A stretch of 64,000 bases of DNA, taken from Planctomycetota bacterium (GTDB lineage: Bacteria; Planctomycetota; UBA8742; JACQVU01; JANLHZ01). A program made the position numbers and the translations under genes. The notes beneath the pieces were generated by a model. The model saw only the letters and a list, made by a program, of their open reading frames with translations. It was not told the DNA's origin and made no database searches. Position 1 is the stretch's first letter. Every line of letters begins with the position of its first letter. The stretch is taken from the NCBI GenBank assembly GCA_024653775.1, contig JANLHZ010000293.1, positions 400 to 64,399 of the forward strand, read 5' to 3'. Below, in pieces: positions 4,937 to 40,456 of the stretch.

Positions 4937-5010
4937 GGGCCCTTAGCTCAGTTGGTTAGAGCAGTGGACTCATAATCCATTGGTCGCTGGTTCAAGTCCA
5001 GCAGGGCCTA
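4937..5010 (+). tRNA. tRNA with CAT anticodon, most like tRNA-Ile2 (lysidine-modified CAU) rather than elongator Met.
   Basis: Cloverleaf GGGCCCT/TAGCTCAGTTGGTTAGAGC/anticodon loop CTCATAA/TGGTCGCTGGTTCAAGTCCAGCAGGGCCT. The anticodon stem-loop and T-arm are near-identical to E. coli ileX. No encoded CCA. Confidence 0.85.
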
Positions 5011-5062
5011 CTTTCACTTTTTGTCGATCCAGAAGACCTCGAAAGGACGCCGCGGGTGCAGG

Positions 5063-6031
5063 ATGAATGCCGCCATAACCTTCAGTCGGGTAACGAAGGT
5101 CTTCCAGCATAGACAGGTTGCGCTCGCGGACGTCAGCTTCGAGGTCCCGAAGGGAGTAACCGTCGGACTGCTCGGCGCGAACGGCGCGGGGAAATCCACC
5201 GCGATCAGAATCGCGCTCGGACTCATAACCGCAAGCGCAGGCGACGTCCAGGTCTTTGGCGAAGCGATGCACCCGGGCGCGAAGTCTCTCCGCCAGAGAA
5301 TGGGTTTTCTGTCCGACGATCCGGCGTATCCGCGTGATCTCACCGCGATCAGCTACCTCGCGTTCGTCGGCAAGTGCTTCGGTATGCCACGCAAGGAACG
5401 CCTCGGAAGGATGGGGACGCTGCTTCGCGCGGTCGGGCTTACCGACGACGCCGGGCGGAAGATCGGAACCTTTTCGACGGGCATGAAGACCCGCCTCGGC
5501 ATTGCCGCGTCGCTTATGAACGATCCGGAGATTCTGATCTGGGACGAACCGACGTCGGGACTCGATCCGATAAGTCGCCGGCAAACGCTCGATCTTCTCG
5601 ACGAATATCACGGAAAGAAAACGATCGTCCTGAGTTCGCACATTCTTGGCGACGTGGACCGCGTTTGCGACAGACTTCTCGTCCTGAATCAGGGTCAGGT
5701 ACTCTTCGACGGGCATCGCGGGGAGTTGGAGAATCAGACTCGCGAATTCATCCTCGAGCTTCGACTCGAAGGCGCGGTGGGGGACTTCCGCGCGGCCATG
5801 CGATCTAGGCTCGGCCGCGAAGACCTCTGTCAGGACGGCGGGACGGTGCGGATCGAACTTTCAGGCGCGGGCGAACTGCATCTGACGGTCGAGTCGCTGC
5901 TTGCGCTCGCAAAGGAAACCGGCGTCACAATCGCAGGGATCAACTCAACCTCCCGGCGGCTGGAAGACGCGTATCTGAAACTGATCTCGGAAGACGAGTA
6001 TCGCGGACTGCTTCGCGTTGCGGAAAGTTGA
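5063..6031 (+). CDS. ABC transporter ATP-binding protein (ABC-2/export type).
   Basis: Walker A GANGAGKST, signature-like FSTGMKTRLG, Walker B ILIWDEPTSGLD and H-loop SSHIL. The start was moved from 5021 to the ATG at 5063 because the ORF track start lies 11 nt after the tRNA. Confidence 0.85.
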   Translation: MNAAITFSRVTKVFQHRQVALADVSFEVPKGVTVGLLGANGAGKSTAIRIALGLITASAGDVQVFGEAMHPGAKSLRQRMGFLSDDPAYPRDLTAISYLAFVGKCFGMPRKERLGRMGTLLRAVGLTDDAGRKIGTFSTGMKTRLGIAASLMNDPEILIWDEPTSGLDPISRRQTLDLLDEYHGKKTIVLSSHILGDVDRVCDRLLVLNQGQVLFDGHRGELENQTREFILELRLEGAVGDFRAAMRSRLGREDLCQDGGTVRIELSGAGELHLTVESLLALAKETGVTIAGINSTSRRLEDAYLKLISEDEYRGLLRVAES

Positions 6032-6037
6032 ACATAA

Positions 6038-6122
6038 AATTCGTACCGTCTACGAATTTTATGTATGATTAAAAATGCTGATTAAAATAATACGAATAAT
6101 TCGTAGACGGCACGAATAAAAT
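6038..6122. repeat. Inverted pair of a ~24-nt element (AATTCGTAGACGG[C/T]ACGAAT) flanking a 36-bp AT-rich spacer between the ABC ATPase and permease genes.
   Basis: 6038..6060 aattcgtaccgtctacgaatttt is the reverse complement of 6098..6120 with one mismatch. Each copy is itself a 6-bp-stem hairpin. Confidence 0.6.
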
Positions 6123-6128
6123 GTTCAG

Positions 6129-11086: not shown

Positions 11087-11107
11087 TCGGATCCGTCTTC
11101 GTACATT

Positions 11108-11135
11108 TTATTCGTGCCGTCTACGAATTATTTGT
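11108..11135. repeat. Third copy of the AATTCGTAGACGGCACGAAT(AAAATG) element (reverse orientation), downstream of folE.
   Basis: cattttattcgtgccgtctacgaatta is the reverse complement of the copy at 6098..6122. Confidence 0.55.
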
Positions 11136-11274
11136 ACGATCACGTCCCGGATTTCCTGGAATCGCGACGGATCGTTGCGCTCACAGCCGCACTCCTGAGA
11201 TTCGCACTTAGAAACTATCTCAAGCGAGCGACATCGATAATTTGGAGCCGTCGAACGAAACGTTTGACGGCTTT

Positions 11275-20334: not shown

Positions 20335-22479
20335 GTGAATAGTATGCGCTTGTCTCTTCTTTACGTGAGTCTTTTCGCTTCGAGCTTTCTCGCTTGCGGT
20401 TCCGAGGAACCGGCTCCCCAGCCGGGACCGAATGAGGGCTGGAATCAGCCGGCGGATAATTCCGGCGGTTTTGGCGCTCAGCCCGCGCCGCAGCCTGCTC
20501 AGAACGGTTTCGGCGCGCAGGACAATAGCGGCTGGCAGGCTCCTGCGCAGACCCCGCAGCAACCCGCGCCGGCTCCGGCGAATAATGGCGCAGCGGATCC
20601 CTGGGGAGCTTCGACTGCGAATACCGCCGCGCCCGCGCCTCAGCAGCAGCCTGGTGGTTGGGATACCGCTCCTGCGCCGGCTCCGGCGAATAACGTAGTC
20701 AATAACGGCGGCGGCTGGGATAACAGCGGCGCTGGTACGAACGAAATCGATTGGGGCGCCGGGCAGGACGAGTGGAATTCGCAGACGAGTTTCACTTCGT
20801 CACAGCCGCAGGAGCCGCCGAGGCTGGTGATCAACGCGAGGACTCGCGTCAATCGTGCGCCGGAAAATGCCGGCGAAAGCGTCGGCCTCGCGGGCGCGGA
20901 AGCGGGAATGCTCGGGGCGGATTCGCTGCTGGACCAGCCCGGCGTCGAGTTCGAGCTTGACGTTCCTTATGCCAACCAGACCACCTTCCTTCCGACGACG
21001 AGCGCGAACTATTTCACGCTCATTTCAAATCTTGGTGCGGAGGTCACTCCGATCGAGCGCCAATACGCTAGACAGATCCTCGTCGACATGGGGAGCGAAA
21101 GCGTTCGCTATCTCGCTGGAGGACTGAAGCATACCGATCCGATCGTGCGCGCGAATTCAGCGCTTGCGCTCGGAGAAATCGGCGACCCGAGCGCAATCGT
21201 GAACGTCATAGAAGTTCTTGACGACGAGAACGATCACGTTCGCGGACAGGCGCTCGTCGCAGTTGCGCGGATGAACATCACTTCGATTCCGTTCCAGGAT
21301 CAGATACCGTTCTGGCAGGCGCTTTACGAGTCGATGGGAGACTACGCTCGGAACAGTCCTTTCGTTCGGATGAACGCTCTGCTCGCGGCTTCGGAGATAG
21401 AGGAAATGCATCCGGAGATTTATGAGCAGATGATAAGCGATCTCAGCGAGCCGGAGGCGGACGACGACACCCGCGCGATGGCGCGCATGGCGTTCAATTC
21501 CCGCTACGCGGTGGGTAACGAGCAAAAGTATCGCGATTACGATCCGATAGCTCGGACGAGATGGCAGCGAGTTCGCCTCGTTCAAATCGAAATCCACGAC
21601 ATTCAGAAAGTTCTGATCACCGTCCTTGCCACGAGAGAGGCGGCGGGATTCTCGATGACCGAGGCGTGGGTACCGCCTTCGGTGAAGCACGACGAACGCC
21701 TCGCGTACGTTCAGAGGGAGATGAGAAAGTATCGATACTGGACCGGCGAACAGATCAGAAACCATTTCTTCGAACTCGAATCCATGCTCGCGAATCTTAT
21801 CGGATTGATGGCGCCGCTCGAGAATCAGAACCGCTGGGTGGTTACGTTTGCGTATTCAGCGACGTTTGGCCGCACTTCGATGGACGCGGAGTTCCGAAAC
21901 AAGACAGTGTTCGAAGCGCAGGAGATCATTGCGAACTCGCTGCAACTTCCGACGCGCACCTGGGATTTCACCGCGGTCGCGGCTGGCAAGGGGGAAGACT
22001 CTCCGATTATTGCGGCTCTTGTCGCGGAGGACGAGGCCGGCACGACGTATAACAATGAGGAAGGTCTCGATTTCACGGAGGATCAGAGTTCGGTCCGTTC
22101 GCGCAGAAGGCGCACCGATCATTTCAACTGGGGACGATCGGCGAACGTTCGAGGAAGTATGCCTAACATCGTCGCGCTGGGCGAAGGCGCGCAGGACGCC
22201 GGCGCGGATACCGGCGGTGGCGGCGGCTGGACGAGTTACGGCGGTTCGACGTCTGGCAGCGCCAGCTCGACACCTTCGAGCGGAGGCCAGGGACAGCCGG
22301 GCGGCGGCAACTCCGGTGGGTGGGGAACTCCTGCCGGCGGCGCTCAGCCGAGCGGCGCTGGTCAGCCCGGCGGTAATTCCGGCGGGTGGGGTGCTCCAGC
22401 GAGCGGAGGAACTTCCTCCGGAGGCGGCTGGAATACTCCGAATAACGGTAATAGTGGAGGCGGCGGTTGGGGTAACTGA
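20335..22479 (+). CDS. HEAT-repeat lipoprotein with a Q/P/A-rich N-terminal and a G/N/S/W-rich C-terminal low-complexity region.
   Basis: Signal peptide plus LAC lipobox-like site. HEAT/PBS-lyase-like repeats (RANSALALGEIGDPSAIVNVIEVLDDENDHVRGQALVAVARM). C-terminal GGNSGGWG x3. Confidence 0.55.
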   Translation: MNSMRLSLLYVSLFASSFLACGSEEPAPQPGPNEGWNQPADNSGGFGAQPAPQPAQNGFGAQDNSGWQAPAQTPQQPAPAPANNGAADPWGASTANTAAPAPQQQPGGWDTAPAPAPANNVVNNGGGWDNSGAGTNEIDWGAGQDEWNSQTSFTSSQPQEPPRLVINARTRVNRAPENAGESVGLAGAEAGMLGADSLLDQPGVEFELDVPYANQTTFLPTTSANYFTLISNLGAEVTPIERQYARQILVDMGSESVRYLAGGLKHTDPIVRANSALALGEIGDPSAIVNVIEVLDDENDHVRGQALVAVARMNITSIPFQDQIPFWQALYESMGDYARNSPFVRMNALLAASEIEEMHPEIYEQMISDLSEPEADDDTRAMARMAFNSRYAVGNEQKYRDYDPIARTRWQRVRLVQIEIHDIQKVLITVLATREAAGFSMTEAWVPPSVKHDERLAYVQREMRKYRYWTGEQIRNHFFELESMLANLIGLMAPLENQNRWVVTFAYSATFGRTSMDAEFRNKTVFEAQEIIANSLQLPTRTWDFTAVAAGKGEDSPIIAALVAEDEAGTTYNNEEGLDFTEDQSSVRSRRRRTDHFNWGRSANVRGSMPNIVALGEGAQDAGADTGGGGGWTSYGGSTSGSASSTPSSGGQGQPGGGNSGGWGTPAGGAQPSGAGQPGGNSGGWGAPASGGTSSGGGWNTPNNGNSGGGGWGN

Positions 22480-22497
22480 CATTTACGGGAATTATCT

Positions 22498-23424
22498 ATG
22501 TCCAAATCCGGCGTGACTGAAATGATTATGAAGTCGGTCGATAAGCTCGGCAGACTTCCCCCGACGCTCAACAAAGTTATTGAAGTTGTAAACAACGCGA
22601 AGGCGAGTCCCAAGGATCTCGCGCAGGTCATAAAATACGATCCCGTGTTGACCTTCGAGATTCTGAAGCTCATAAACAGCGCGTATTTTTCCATAAGAAA
22701 CGAAATCAAAACGCTTTCACAGGCGATTGTTCTTCTCGGTATGAACACCGTGAAGAATCTTTGCCTTTCGATCGCTCTTGCGCAGAAGCTCAGCGCGGAG
22801 ATGCCTGCGAAAACGAACGGCAAATCGTTCTCGATTTCGTATTTCTGGGAGCACAGCCTCAAGGTTGCGATCGCGTCCCGCCTCATCGCGGCGAAGGCTA
22901 TGAATCCGCCTTCGACGAAGGAGGAGTTTTTTCTCGCGGGGCTGCTTCACGATATGGGGAAGCTAGTGATCTACTCCGTGGTTCCGGACGCGTACCTCAA
23001 TATGCTTCACGAGTCGAAGGAGACCCGGAGTTCGGTTCATCACAGGGAGGGCGAGGAGTTCGGGATTACCCACGCGGAAGTCGGTGCTCAGATCGGCAAG
23101 CGCTGGGATTTCAGCGACGGGTTCATCGAGGCGGTTCTCGGCCACCACAAGGACGAATTCTCAGACGAGCATTTCGCGCAGATTGCGAACTGCGTCAAGG
23201 TCGCGAATCACTACGTCCATGTTTACGACGATCTTCGGGAAAGCGAGAATTCTAACGACGAAGTCGAAAAACACGCCCGCGATCCGCTGCCGGACAGCGT
23301 GTTCGGTAGCATCAAAGCGAATCGGGAGAAGGTCGAGGAAGTCCTCGGCGGCGAGCTTCAAGTCGAATTCGAGCGCGCGCAGGCGTTTCTTTCCACGCTC
23401 AGCGGGCAGTCGAATAAAAACTAG
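22498..23424 (+). CDS. HDOD domain signalling protein.
   Basis: PTLNKVIEVVNNAKASPKDLAQVIKYDPVLTFEILKLINSAYF, LLHDMGKLVI and GHHKDE fit the HDOD domain. 18 nt after the upstream gene. Confidence 0.75.
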   Translation: MSKSGVTEMIMKSVDKLGRLPPTLNKVIEVVNNAKASPKDLAQVIKYDPVLTFEILKLINSAYFSIRNEIKTLSQAIVLLGMNTVKNLCLSIALAQKLSAEMPAKTNGKSFSISYFWEHSLKVAIASRLIAAKAMNPPSTKEEFFLAGLLHDMGKLVIYSVVPDAYLNMLHESKETRSSVHHREGEEFGITHAEVGAQIGKRWDFSDGFIEAVLGHHKDEFSDEHFAQIANCVKVANHYVHVYDDLRESENSNDEVEKHARDPLPDSVFGSIKANREKVEEVLGGELQVEFERAQAFLSTLSGQSNKN

Positions 23425-23444
23425 GACACGCAGGGATTGGTATT

Positions 23445-23792
23445 CGTTCGGTGAGCCACGTTTCTTGCGGATTGAGTACCCACCTTGTCCGTGATCTACA
23501 TTAGTGACGCGGACACCGTCGTGATCAGTTAAAAAACTTTCTGAGTAGAAGTGCTTTTGATGTCTGATTTAAGTTTTGATTTCAACTAAGACTTAGTCAT
23601 AATCTTTTAAGCCGCTTTATTATTATACTAAGTTTTATTATACGCTTATAGCCATCATTTTAAAGCCAATAAAATGTATTCGTTCGATAAACCACGTTGA
23701 TAGAAGCGCATACGAAGGTTTTTGCGCGTGGCATGGTCATCTTGACCGTGAAATCGCGAATGGGACGTCCGTGCCACGTGGATCACCGAACG
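23445..23792. mobile_element. MITE-like element: 314-bp AT-rich non-coding core flanked by 17-bp inverted repeats (CGTTCGGTGAGCCACGT / ACGTGGATCACCGAACG, 16/17), between convergent HDOD and prfB.
   Basis: Inverted repeats read directly at 23445..23461 and 23776..23792. The core is ~30% GC versus ~60% in the flanks. No ORF. Confidence 0.4.
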
Positions 23793-23815
23793 TTCACCGG
23801 GATCGATCCGCGGCC

Positions 23816-24920
23816 TTAATTTTCTTCGAACTTCCAGCGCAGGTATGTTTCGATCAGTTCGTCGATGTCTCCGCCCAGAACTTTGTGCACCGCGGAAGTC
23901 GAATATTCCGTGCGTTCGTCCTTCACGCGGGTTTCCGGGTGAATGAAATAGCTGCGGATTCTCTGTCCGAACCCGGCTTTGCCTTTCGATGCGCGATTCT
24001 CCTTCTGTTTCGCGGCGCGCTCCTCCTCCTCACGCCGGCCAAGCTTCGCGGCGAGGAGCTTGATCGCCTGTGCGCGGTTCTGGTGCTGGCTGCGTTCGTT
24101 CTGGCACGAGACGACGATCCCGGTTGGATTGTGAGTCATCCGCACCGCGCTCGCGGTTTTGTTGACGTGCTGGCCACCGGCGCCGGACGCGCAGAAAATA
24201 TCGATGCGGACGTCGTTCATATCGATTTCGATTTTCGATTCGTCCTCGACCATCGGAATCACGTCGACGCCTGCAAAACTTGTCTGTCTCTTCGCGTCCG
24301 CATTGAACGGCGAAAACCTGACAAGCCTCTGCACTCCAATCTCGCCCTGCAGGTTGCCGTAGGCGAATGGACCCTTCACCGCGAAGGTAACGCTTCGATA
24401 CCCGGCTTCCTCGCCCGGCGCTTCGTCGATGAGTTCGACCTCGTAACCCTTGTTCTTCGCCCACGCGCTGTACATTCGAAGGAGGATTGCGACAAAATCG
24501 CACGCGTCGGTCCCGCCTTCCCCCGCGCTGATGATGACGAAGCAGTCGCCGCGATCGTGTTCGCCTGAGAGCAGCGTCAACAGCTCGAAACTTTTCACCC
24601 TGGTCGCTAGTTTTTGAACGGCATCCGCGAACTCATTCGTCTGATCTTCGTTGTCTTCTTCTTCCGCGAATTCGCGCAGAACCTCGAGATCTTCCGCGTC
24701 GCGCAGAATCCTCTCGAACGGTTCGACAATAGACTTCTCGAACTTCAGCGCGGAGATTACCTTTTTCTGGCGTTCCTTGTCGTCCCAGAACCCGGGTTCG
24801 CCCATCACGTTTTCAAGGCGGGAAATCTCGTCTTTGCGAGAGCCCAGGTCAAAGGGACCCCCTTAGCGCGTCAACTCTCCGCGCCACGTCTTCGTATAGT
24901 TGTCCGAGTTCGTAGTCCAT
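23816..24920 (-). CDS. prfB: Peptide chain release factor 2, with programmed +1 frameshift (site at 24848..24854 on this strand copy).
   Basis: SPF and GGQ motifs (RFSPFNADAKRQTSFAGVDV..., ASGAGGQHVNKT). The upstream short frame MDYELGQLYEDVARRVDALRGSL ends at the canonical AGGGGG-N3-CTT-TGA-C shift site and joins the 330-aa frame. Confidence 0.9.
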
Positions 24921-24996: not shown

Positions 24997-25584
24997 TTAT
25001 ACCGATAAAAATTCTGTTTTCAAAATGCCGTACATCTCGATGTCTTCGAGTTTTCCCCAGCGGAACATATGTTTCCTGCGCGAGCCTTCGTGCATCATTC
25101 CGGCTTTCAGAAGAACGCGTCCGGACGCTGGGTTTTTCGACATGTGGTGCGCGTGTACGCGGATCAGCCCTAGCGTCGTGAAGGCGAAGTCGATCACCGC
25201 GCGCGCCGCTTCGGTGCAGTAGCCGTTACCACAGAACGGTTTTCCGATCCAGTAGCCGACCTCCGCCTGATGCTCCTTCTGGATGTCCATCAGTCCTATC
25301 GCTCCAAGAAGCTCGCCCGTTTCTTTGAGGGTGATCGCGAGCGCGACTCCGCTACAGGTATCGAAATCCTTCCGATGAGTCGAAATCCATTCCGCCGCGG
25401 CGCCTTCAGGATAGGGGTGGGGGATGTGTGCGGTCATCTCCGCGATGGCATAATCCCCAGCCAGACGCTGCACGTCCGCCGCGTCGGAAAGTTCGAACGG
25501 GCGGAGGATTAGTCGCGAAGTTTCAAGATTCGGAATCGCCACGGGCAGCCCCATCAATAAATTGGTTTCAAAGTTATGAAACAA
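24997..25584 (-). CDS. GNAT family N-acetyltransferase (RimJ/RimL-like).
   Basis: LRPFELSDAADV..., IGLMDIQKEHQAEVGYWIGKPFCGNGYCTEAARAVIDFAF is typical of the GNAT acetyl-CoA binding core. Confidence 0.75.
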   Translation of the reverse strand: MFHNFETNLLMGLPVAIPNLETSRLILRPFELSDAADVQRLAGDYAIAEMTAHIPHPYPEGAAAEWISTHRKDFDTCSGVALAITLKETGELLGAIGLMDIQKEHQAEVGYWIGKPFCGNGYCTEAARAVIDFAFTTLGLIRVHAHHMSKNPASGRVLLKAGMMHEGSRRKHMFRWGKLEDIEMYGILKTEFLSV

Positions 25585-25673: not shown

Positions 25674-27758
25674 CTACTGTTTGTAGTGAACGATCGGGAG
25701 TTCTATCCCGCCGCCGGAAGCGAGGTCCATTCCGCTGGCGTCCGCGGATTCGGCCGGCCCGATGTGGCTGTGCCGCGGGTTGACGAGGTTTCGGTGATGG
25801 CCGCCGTCCCAGCGCCAGTTATCCATCGCGGTGCGGATTCCGCCCTGAGCAATATTCTCGCCCACGGTGTTGAACGGATAGCCCTGTCTGCGAATCCTGC
25901 TGCTGAGGTCGCGGGTCTCGGGAGTCTTTCCGTCGTGGCCGAAGAAGTCGTACGCCGCCATCTGTTCGAGGTGGCCGATCATCGCCTGCGTGACCTGGGA
26001 CTGAATCTGCAGCGGCGACATCATAAGCTGCGCGCGATACCAGTTGTTGTATTCGGTCGCGTCGCGCACGGCGCGGGACGCCTCGACCTGCATATTCTTG
26101 TTCAGATCGTTAACCATGTAATGCACGGCCATGAAGAACATGACGCGCTCGTATCCTTCGAGTGCGGGGCCTGGCTCGACGGTCCAATCGACCTCCGCAG
26201 CCGCGTTTTGGCTCGTCTCCGTGGTGCTAACCTGCGCGCCCGTTCTGTACGTTCCCGCGTACCCGAGCGAACTCGCGCCGAGCGGGAAACCGAGGCCCGT
26301 CGGGAGTCCGATCATGTTCCCGCCGCGCTCATTTGGAAGTTGTCTGCGTGGGCTTGACGACGCGCTCGCCCTTCTCGGCGCAGGCGACTCGGCACCGGCG
26401 CCCGACGCGGAATTCGATCCCGCGGTTCCGGCCTGCGCTCCGGCGTTTCCGCGCGAAGTCGAGGTCGAAGCCGCGGCTCCGGAGTTCGAACGTCCGGAAT
26501 TGTTCGCTGGCGTGCCCCAGTCGTCATCATTATTCGTGTTCCGCCCGGCGTTATTGCTGCCGGAGTTCGAAGCGTTTCCGCGCGAGTTCGCGCCCGAGTT
26601 CGAATTTCCCCGCGGCGTGGTGCGCTCGGGATAATCGCTCTCGCGCTCCGGATAGTCGCTGCTTTCGGGATAGTCGGAGCCGCCGGTGCCGCCGCCGAGT
26701 CCGTAAGGATCTCCGCCGAGTCCGCGCATTCCGGGGAGTCCGAGGTCGTCGCCGGTTCCGCCCGGTCCGAGAAGCTCTTCGTCGGATTCTGGCAGATCGC
26801 CGAGGAATCCGCGGTCAGCGACCCAGTCTCCTGCTCCGGATGGACGCGTTCCCTCGGAGTCGCTGTAGTCTTCCATTTCCTGCCAGAACGGATTGTTGCG
26901 GGCGCCGTAGCTTCCTCCTTCCATTCCGGGCATTCCTGGGAGGTTCTGGTCGGCTCCGGGGAGCGGGTTTCCCATGGGATCGACTCCGCCTCCGCCCGCG
27001 CCGCCGTTCTGTGCGCCTTGTCCGACGCCTGCGCCCGAGTTCGAGCCGGCGGACGATCCTGACGCGGAGAAGCCGTGGTAGATCAGGAGCGCCTTGCGCC
27101 AGTCTTTCAGCTTCAGGAACATCATTCCCTGAAGGAATCTCGACATTTCCGGCTGTGCGCGGGGAGTTTCGCGGGAATGATCCTTCAGCACTTTTTCGAA
27201 TTCCGCGAGCAACTTGCGCGACGCGATGATCTTGTCCGCGAACTCCTGCACCGCCTCCCGCGAGGTCTGGTTGTACGCGCGAAGATCGCCTTCGAAGCTG
27301 CGTTTGAAATCCCGGAAGATGTTGTCGAGGGCTGTGAACTGCTCCGCGACGAAATCGTAGCCGATGTAAGGGCCGCTGACGGGGCCGTTCGGATTCGGGA
27401 ACGCGACGGTGTCGAAAATCGTGTCGAGGGTTTTCTTCGACTGCGCTTCCCAGGCTTCGCGAATGGCTTTCGTGGCCTCGATATTAGCCTTGTAGTTTCC
27501 GAAGAGCGCTTCGAACTTCTCGATGTTGTCCTCCAGATCGCCCGCCTGACGCTGGTACTCCTGCGAAATGGTGTCGAGCGCGAGCGGTTTTTCCGTATCG
27601 CTGAGCTTATCGATCGCGGAATACGCCTCGGCGCGAGCGGTCGAACTATCGCTCCGCACCGCGCGTCTGATGTCGCTGAGGCTCATCTCTTCGCTCATCG
27701 CGGAAATGGCGAAAAGTCCGAGAATTCCGATCGAGGCTAAAAATGCTCTGAATTTCAT
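25674..27758 (-). CDS. Secreted CAP/SCP (PR-1-like) domain protein with a long G/S/N-rich disordered linker.
   Basis: Signal peptide MKFRAFLASIGILGLFAISAMS. C-terminal GHDGKTPETR...GENIAQG...GGHHRNLVNPRHSHIG is CAP-like. Confidence 0.6.
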   Translation of the reverse strand: MKFRAFLASIGILGLFAISAMSEEMSLSDIRRAVRSDSSTARAEAYSAIDKLSDTEKPLALDTISQEYQRQAGDLEDNIEKFEALFGNYKANIEATKAIREAWEAQSKKTLDTIFDTVAFPNPNGPVSGPYIGYDFVAEQFTALDNIFRDFKRSFEGDLRAYNQTSREAVQEFADKIIASRKLLAEFEKVLKDHSRETPRAQPEMSRFLQGMMFLKLKDWRKALLIYHGFSASGSSAGSNSGAGVGQGAQNGGAGGGGVDPMGNPLPGADQNLPGMPGMEGGSYGARNNPFWQEMEDYSDSEGTRPSGAGDWVADRGFLGDLPESDEELLGPGGTGDDLGLPGMRGLGGDPYGLGGGTGGSDYPESSDYPERESDYPERTTPRGNSNSGANSRGNASNSGSNNAGRNTNNDDDWGTPANNSGRSNSGAAASTSTSRGNAGAQAGTAGSNSASGAGAESPAPRRASASSSPRRQLPNERGGNMIGLPTGLGFPLGASSLGYAGTYRTGAQVSTTETSQNAAAEVDWTVEPGPALEGYERVMFFMAVHYMVNDLNKNMQVEASRAVRDATEYNNWYRAQLMMSPLQIQSQVTQAMIGHLEQMAAYDFFGHDGKTPETRDLSSRIRRQGYPFNTVGENIAQGGIRTAMDNWRWDGGHHRNLVNPRHSHIGPAESADASGMDLASGGGIELPIVHYKQ

Positions 27759-31871: not shown

Positions 31872-32009
31872 TCTGGGACATAATATATATATGACTTCGA
31901 ATTAGTCCAGACCATTTCGAATCATACTTCGAAATAGTCATGACTATTTCGAAGTATGATTCGAAATGGTCTGGACTAATTCGAAGTCATATATATATTA
32001 TGTCCCAGA
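31872..32009. other. Palindrome axis: 138-bp AT-rich region between the two divergent AAA-ATPase gene copies. Nested hairpins: atttcgaa-tcatac-ttcgaaat at 31914..31935, mirrored at 31946..31967.
   Basis: Direct reading: ...ttcgaattagtccagaccatttcgaatcatacttcgaaatagtca|tgactatttcgaagtatgattcgaaatggtctggactaattcgaa... The TTCGAA motif occurs three times per side, and a TATATATAT run sits at 31882..31892. Confidence 0.9.
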
Positions 32010-40065: not shown

Positions 40066-40088
40066 GGCCGCGGATCGATCCCGGTGAA

Positions 40089-40436
40089 CGTTCGGTGATC
40101 CACGTGGCACGGACGTCCCATTCGCGATTTCACGGTCAAGATGACCATGCCACGCGCAAAAACCTTCGTATGCGCTTCTATCAACGTGGTTTATCGAACG
40201 AATACATTTTATTGGCTTTAAAATGATGGCTATAAGCGTATAATAAAACTTAGTATAATAATAAAGCGGCTTAAAAGATTATGACTAAGTCTTAGTTGAA
40301 ATCAAAACTTAAATCAGACATCAAAAGCACTTCTACTCAGAAAGTTTTTTAACTGATCACGACGGTGTCCGCGTCACTAATGTAGATCACGGACAAGGTG
40401 GGTACTCAATCCGCAAGAAACGTGGCTCACCGAACG
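40089..40436. mobile_element. MITE-like AT-rich element with 17-bp inverted repeats, mirror copy.
   Basis: Mirror of 23445..23792. Confidence 0.4.
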
Positions 40437-40456
40437 AATACCAATCCCTGCGTGTC

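Follow-up and report, generated by a model that had tools for sequence, protein, structure and literature searches.

A three-copy repeat motif between the convergent HDOD and prfB genes of a Planctomycetota bacterium: possibly a solitary MITE-like element or IS-end relic

Prokaryotic MITEs are defined as 50-800 bp long; their terminal inverted repeats span at least 10-15 bp and their target-site duplications 2-10 bp (PMC11602168). A non-coding element of 360 bp, located at positions 23439-23798 of the 64,000-nucleotide stretch of DNA analysed here (the window), resembles such MITEs as the Correia elements, MITEAba12 and Nezha (PMC11602168, PMC2229807) in its shortness and lack of coding sequence, its terminal inverted repeats of 17-23 nt, its intergenic site near gene ends, its predicted folding as a long hairpin and a possible short target duplication. 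With inverted ends that agree at 16/17 positions in the core (19/23 when extended) and no transposase ORF within its 360 bp, it has the repeat length and the size of a MITE. Unlike the described MITEs, it is known here in one copy, the searches reported below revealed neither a cognate IS nor a transposase, its candidate target duplication is imperfect and not significant, an extra copy of the end motif lies inside it, and its composition is heterogeneous.

Other described systems share some of these features. REP/BIME extragenic palindromes and 3'-UTR stabiliser hairpins likewise occur just after the stop codons of convergent genes, where opposed repeats can form 3'-UTR stem-loops; in contrast, the motif of the present element is not palindromic, the distances between its copies (78 and 314 nt) are much larger, and it is known from a single site, whereas a different, REP-like repeat in this contig (6095-6124 and 11103-11132) is truly interspersed. 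Invertons (fimS of Escherichia coli; IVp-I of Bacteroides fragilis, PMC4747536; survey, PMC11602134) also place inverted repeats around an AT-rich, promoter-like segment of about 300 bp; their repeat copies can exceed two and their recombinase may be encoded far away, as in B. fragilis, which has invertons with more than two inverted-repeat copies and distant 'master' invertases (PMC4747536). Unlike an inverton, the element lies between two 3' ends, with no gene to switch and no recombinase nearby, and a single orientation was seen. In iteron or operator arrays beside AT-rich DNA, such as plasmid-type origins and attP-like arm sites, an asymmetric motif about 20 bp long is repeated in direct and inverted orientation, as in the element, but here there are three copies only, neither rep nor an integrase gene is present, and the setting is one of chromosomal housekeeping genes.

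The most consequential result concerns the contig itself and affects how anything else found in it should be read. The window is perfectly palindromic, with no spacer: base i complements base 63881-i throughout positions 1-63880, without a mismatch among 31,940 pairs, and the axis falls between GTCA and TGAC at 31940/31941. The deposited GenBank contig (64,678 bp) carries the duplication, its protein accessions being spaced as a mirror image (MCR4318210/223 for the HDOD protein and MCR4318211/222 for the prfB product), and the two tRNA-Met genes (4937, plus strand, and 58870, minus strand) are mirror images of each other. A perfect fold-back without a spacer is most likely an assembly artefact. 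Since the features to the right of 31940 are mirror images, the window holds only 31.9 kb of independent information, and apparent second copies here never count as evidence of mobility. A match at 40089-40436 was considered as a second copy of the inverted-repeat segment and rejected, because the window is exactly palindromic and GenBank lists two protein accessions for each gene; the mirror image of the entire element (40083-40442, minus strand) is a product of the palindromic contig and not an independent copy.

The element occupies most of a 391-nt stop-to-stop interval between two convergent genes. On its left, an HDOD/HD-domain gene (22498-23424, plus strand; PF08668, E = 4e-55) ends with its stop codon 14 nt before the element, and on its right the stop codon of prfB, encoding release factor 2 (23816-24920, minus strand; PCRF and RF-1 domains, 367 aa), is 17 nt away. 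A programmed +1 frameshift site, CTT TGA C, is present in prfB at 24854-24848 (minus strand) with AGGGGG upstream; both gene identities, and with them the location between two 3' ends that had been claimed from the first reading of the sequence, are upheld by the domain matches and this frameshift site. The surroundings are those of chromosomal housekeeping genes (prfB, pgi, folE, tRNA-Met). The autoregulatory frameshift site of prfB (24848-24866, minus strand) has thus been kept in a deeply branching lineage. Two large proteins encoded on either side, a HEAT-repeat protein (20335-22479, plus strand) and a CAP-domain protein (25674-27758, minus strand), are unusual in having long low-complexity tails or linkers rich in G, S, N, W and P.

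The nearest homologues of both flanking genes are remote. Among 5.8 billion proteins, the best homologue of the prfB product is 52-54% identical and is not in a syntenic location. The best homologue of the HDOD protein, 60% identical, is encoded in genome GCA_016209585.1 on contig JACQVU010000268.1, where the order HEAT-HEAT-HDOD is syntenic and the contig ends inside the HDOD gene; in the same relative, a paralogous HDOD gene is located on contig JACQVU010000085.1, which ends 67 nt after the stop codon and does not contain the motif. That contigs of this relative break in or after its HDOD genes may be due to chance, or to a downstream repeat that the assembler could not cross. None of the other relatives examined is syntenic, nor is P0007. 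Judged by these protein identities, the lineage is very isolated and its nearest relatives are very distant. The neighbour of prfB, a GNAT (RimJ/RimL-like) acetyltransferase gene (24997-25584, minus strand), belongs to a family widely shared across phyla and gives no lineage signal: its product is 60-66% identical to proteins of many unrelated phyla, and the contrast with the adjacent prfB, at 54% identity or less to anything, suggests from sequence comparison that the GNAT gene is horizontally mobile.

The preliminary description of this locus reported a 17-nt inverted repeat at 23445-23461 and 23776-23792, complementary at 16/17 positions with 314 nt between the arms, and our analysis confirms it. 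The arms are longer than was described: 19/23 positions are identical between 23439-23461 and the reverse complement of 23776-23798, giving 23-nt ends. The left terminal repeat (copy 1, 23439-23461, plus strand) reads GGTATTCGTTCGGTGAGCCACGT, with the 17-nt core CGTTCGGTGAGCCACGT at 23445-23461, and the right terminal repeat (copy 3, 23776-23798, minus strand) has the reverse complement GGTGAACGTTCGGTGATCCACGT, with the 17-nt core ACGTGGATCACCGAACG at 23776-23792. An internal copy, previously overlooked (copy 2, 23676-23698, plus strand; GTATTCGTTCGATAAACCACGTT), is a direct repeat of 23440-23462 at 20/23 positions; its three differences from copy 1 are all G to A, and it is complementary to the right arm at 14/17 positions. 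Copies 2 and 3 are separated by 78 nt, and copies 1 and 3 by 314 nt. The motif, about 22 bp long and not itself palindromic, has the form GT-nnn-CGTTCG-nnnnn-CCACGT, in which, as read from the sequence, the conserved hexamers CGTTCG and CCACGT are spaced one helical turn apart. Written as an end pattern, the motif is GGT(A/G)..CGTTCGGTGA(G/T)CCACGT, and the outer 5 nt are GTATT in both direct copies and GTGAA in the inverted copy.

The inverted repeat alone is weak evidence of anything, because block shuffling already leads one to expect 0.17 repeats of this kind (at least 17 nt and no more than one mismatch, within 1 kb) per 32 kb; two were observed, the second in the unique half being a local hairpin at about 6039-6117. 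The three-copy motif is another matter. At three mismatches or fewer it has three unique matches (six with their mirror images), as against 0.52 expected in the full 64-kb window, and 0/100 shuffled sequences reached the observed six. The three-copy motif is not due to chance, and some real process has duplicated it or maintains it.

Between the repeats, the composition is less uniform and less extreme than was first proposed. The 314-bp core has the length described, but its G+C content is 39.5% rather than about 30%, and the background is 55% (in the unique part of the window) rather than about 60%. The AT-rich part is confined to a non-coding centre of about 150 bp (23526-23675; 26.7% GC), within which lies the 100-nt window of lowest G+C content in the unique half (24%). 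On its left is a sub-terminal segment of 52% GC (23462-23525) with a hairpin at 23487-23514 and half-motif-like sequences GTGATC(T/A) at 23491 and 23521; on its right, a segment of 54.5% GC (23699-23775, minus strand) contains hairpin arms at 23727-23741 and 23764-23778. Intergenic DNA of this genome is AT-rich in general (29-48% GC). Thus of the features presented as hallmarks of a MITE, the inverted ends and the intergenic site between 3' ends stand, and the anomalous composition, limited to the central 150 bp of a genome with AT-rich intergenic DNA, is weaker than stated. The reported absence of an ORF also holds, the longest ORFs inside the element being 20-43 aa and none of them lying in the AT-rich part.

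With a confidence somewhat below even, we read 23439-23798 from its sequence features as a solitary MITE-like element or a relic of IS ends, possibly a fossil. The observations to be accommodated are three copies of the motif, a non-coding AT-rich centre, a site between two stop codons, and no transposase in 32 kb. We infer that a non-autonomous sequence derived from a DNA transposon (MITE-like, or made up of the joined ends of an IS that has decayed) may have inserted into an HDOD-prfB stop-codon spacer of about 25-30 bp, through a transposase supplied in trans that would bind the end motif of about 22 bp, GT-nnn-CGTTCG-nnnnn-CCACGT. The two copies beginning with GTATT would be of a left type and the copy beginning with GTGAA of a right type, as in IS ends with an extra sub-terminal binding site, and by analogy the difference in the outer nucleotides may represent the asymmetry of IRL and IRR that is typical of IS ends. 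Apart from the motif, the left and right halves, with their sub-terminal segments, showed no homology to each other (p = 0.25), which would fit MITEs in which only the ends are conserved, and none continues after the two direct copies (p = 0.06). Staggered cleavage of the target would have produced a duplication of 5-6 bp, GGGAT(T/C). The element would now probably be immobile and would serve by default as 3'-untranslated region of both genes, its pairing-competent ends perhaps helping to stop or insulate convergent transcription.

The candidate duplication depends on where the boundaries are drawn. At the ends of the 17-nt arms, as first described, the adjoining sequences GTATT and TTCAC do not form a duplication. 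At the 23-nt boundaries, the left end adjoins GGGATT (23433-23438) and the right end adjoins GGGATC (23799-23804), which overlaps a 10-nt palindrome, GGATCGATCC, at 23800-23809. The two hexamers agree at 5/6 positions, with an empirical p = 0.076. For this estimate the boundaries were shifted symmetrically by 0-8 nt, adjoining direct repeats of 3-10 nt were considered, and the best of them was scored against 5,000 pairs of flanks drawn at random from this contig. As a target duplication, the pair is marginal, suggestive but not significant. Excision of the element together with one duplication in silico leaves a compact convergent HDOD-prfB spacer of 25 nt; a second convergent pair in the contig is 1 nt apart.

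Additional copies of the element were sought in several collections. None was found in the 31.9 kb of unique sequence (by motif scan and local blastn) or in plasmids and phages. In viral contigs the 17-mer gave six chance singletons and the paired-motif pattern 0 matches, and JGI metagenomes gave 0 matches to the paired-motif patterns at both spacings. A genome collection gave at least 111 matches to the 17-mer in unrelated taxa; among the matches listed, all were chance singletons, with no locus having two (inverted) matches, no similarity beyond the seed, and the source genome not represented. No transposase or recombinase domains are encoded in the 32 kb.

Other repeats are present in the unique half of the contig. 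Two intergenic regions (6095-6124, plus strand, and 11103-11132, minus strand) share an exact interspersed repeat of 30 nt, AATAATTCGTAGACGGCACGAATAAAATGT, of which a third copy, 20 nt long and 95% identical, lies at 6039-6058 (plus strand). The repeat includes a small hairpin, ATTCGT-N7-ACGAAT, with GTAG, and is located just past the stop codons of the genes for an ABC ATPase and folE; it is REP-like, or else a shared AT-rich terminator or operator. Short interspersed intergenic repeats such as this one indicate that small mobile or repeated elements exist in the genome, in favour of the MITE-like reading. An 11-mer from the flank of the 30-nt repeat, AATAAAATGTA, also precedes copy 2, at 23668-23678. 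Positions 6029-6127 belong to the intergenic region that ranks second in AT-richness (29% GC), located between the genes for the ABC ATPase and an HlyD-like protein, and contain a 42-nt imperfect inverted repeat with a perfect 14-nt hairpin, ACATAAAATTCGTA-CCGTC-TACGAATTTTATGT, which with its A-tract and T-tract is shaped like a bidirectional terminator. At the left end of the contig, positions 1-2500 have 41-44% GC as against 55%, contain the gene for a DUF3238 protein and ORFs that match no Pfam family, and may be an acquired island; tRNA-Met (4937-5011) lies a few kilobases from this AT-rich end, and a dif-like 19-mer with one mismatch is found at 1428-1446.

Several points go against the MITE-like reading: no second copy was found in the collections searched, there is no transposase in the 32 kb, the target duplication is imperfect and marginal, and the composition is heterogeneous. 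To these may be added that, in predicted folds, the helix of copy 2 with the right end is better in prfB-sense than in plus-strand RNA, which hints at constraint at the level of RNA rather than DNA. Of the alternatives, the one that survives best, doubtful as a whole yet still a serious contender, is that the region is native and cis-acting and was never inserted. The motif copies would then be sites for a DNA- or RNA-binding protein of the host, or alternative partners for RNA pairing in the 3'-untranslated regions of prfB and HDOD, with copy 3 pairing either with copy 2, in a local branched hairpin after the prfB stop codon, or with copy 1 over a long range. A structure of this kind would make the convergent transcripts more stable or bring about their termination, the AT-rich centre acting as a spacer or as the promoter of an unannotated small RNA. 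The spacing of CGTTCG and CCACGT by one helical turn, as in protein-binding sites, is in keeping with this possibility.

Predicted RNA folding gives a native region its best argument. The region as a whole folds more stably than shuffled sequences on both strands (z = -3.8 and -3.4), an excess that arises from the long-range repeat. Within it, 23670-23815 in the prfB sense (minus strand) has a predicted energy of -52.1 kcal/mol (z = -2.6, equalled by 1/200 shuffles), copies 2 and 3 together with the right sub-terminal segment being predicted to form a branched stem-loop; the plus strand does not stand out (z = -1.55). The helix between copies 2 and 3 is also stronger in minus-strand RNA (-22.3 kcal/mol, with 16/17 positions paired, two of them as G.U) than in plus-strand RNA (-15.4 kcal/mol), because two of the three G-to-A changes of copy 2 become G.U pairs only on the minus strand. 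This strand-biased pairing hints at an RNA-level role in the 3'-untranslated region of prfB; two transitions are, however, too few for significance, and an asymmetry of this kind would arise by chance about 50% of the time. The AT-rich centre folds significantly on neither strand (z = -1.5 and +0.5), and the searches yielded no homologues in which covariation might be seen. With the covariance models of Rfam 15, the best matches inside the element had E = 2.5-8.6, far below the gathering scores, and no tRNA or tmRNA was found there, only the tRNA-Met genes passing in the window. The earlier suggestion that the stretch might encode a structured small RNA therefore finds no backing in Rfam and modest backing in the folding of the minus strand.

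How transcription ends at this junction also bears on a native function. Between 23200 and 24000 there are 0 canonical intrinsic terminators (a GC-rich hairpin followed by a U-tract), although the genome uses them elsewhere, as at 11246-11272 (AGCCGTCGAACG-AAA-CGTTTGACGGCT followed by TTTT); something else must therefore end both the HDOD and the prfB transcripts. The U-tract that follows the large hairpin begins 6 nt from the stem and is not terminator-like. The AT-rich centre contains three pairs of sigma-70-like hexamers, distributed over both strands (23576-23603 and 23594-23623, plus strand; 23664-23637, minus strand), as against 0.6 expected; these are matches to the consensus only, and the excess carries little weight because any AT-rich DNA gives such an excess.

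An ordinary long intergenic spacer, in which the repeats arose by local duplication or slippage and have neither function nor mobility, is unlikely. Other convergent junctions in the contig measure 95-316 bp, a single 17-nt inverted repeat has the chance expectation given above (0.17 per 32 kb), and the failure to find copies elsewhere would suit a spacer. Three copies of a 22-nt motif within 391 bp are nonetheless far beyond chance, and slippage poorly explains an inverted copy that is 314 nt away and preserved at 16/17 positions.

It is very unlikely that the element is an inverton, in which a distantly encoded site-specific recombinase would flip a segment, either the 314 bp enclosed by the inverted terminal copies or the 78 bp that separate copies 2 and 3, so that a promoter within it would drive antisense transcription into HDOD or prfB. 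Inverted repeats do surround a promoter-like AT-rich segment, and the sizes and repeat lengths of known invertons cover those of the element, fimS, at 314 bp, being a case for comparison. The core AACGTTCG presumably resembles the Mpi-type inverted-repeat consensus, a likeness that was given no weight. An inverton, however, lies upstream of the gene that it regulates and has an invertase available, whereas here both neighbours face the element with their 3' ends, leaving no downstream gene to switch on, and no recombinase domain is encoded in the 32 kb. One orientation was seen, the opposite one being the mirror artefact of the palindrome, and the promoter matches are at the level of consensus only. 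A switch between the convergent genes, whether an inverton with an antisense promoter into prfB or HDOD or an RNA element in which the pairing of copy 3 with copy 2 or copy 1 sets read-through, is likewise a long shot; if true, it would be an unusual case in which the 3' end of a gene is used to regulate an essential translation factor.

That the element is a site of chromosomal replication, either an origin, in which DnaA boxes would accompany an AT-rich unwinding element, or a terminus marked by dif or Ter, is scarcely credible: there are repeats around AT-rich DNA, and gene orientation and GC skew change sign near 23-24 kb as at a terminus, but the region has two unclustered DnaA-box matches at two mismatches each, dnaA and dnaN are not present, and the skew change coincides with the change of gene strand and spans only a few kilobases. 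The sequence TGATCCACG resembles the Caulobacter-type DnaA box, TGATCCACA. As specific candidates, oriC was rejected for its lack of a DnaA-box cluster, its GATC count (5 as against about 2.9 expected) and a skew polarity opposite to that of an origin, and dif (the 28-bp XerC/D site) because the only matches in the region have three mismatches, which is the level of chance.

If the element is instead native and conserved, it would represent a lineage-specific way to end or insulate convergent transcription without a canonical terminator. If, in accordance with the MITE-like reading, further copies are present in the source genome, the element would define a new family of MITEs in an uncultured lineage that branches very deeply among the Planctomycetota. 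Such a family would be unsurprising in kind, but useful for the annotation of mobile DNA and for finding the parent IS.
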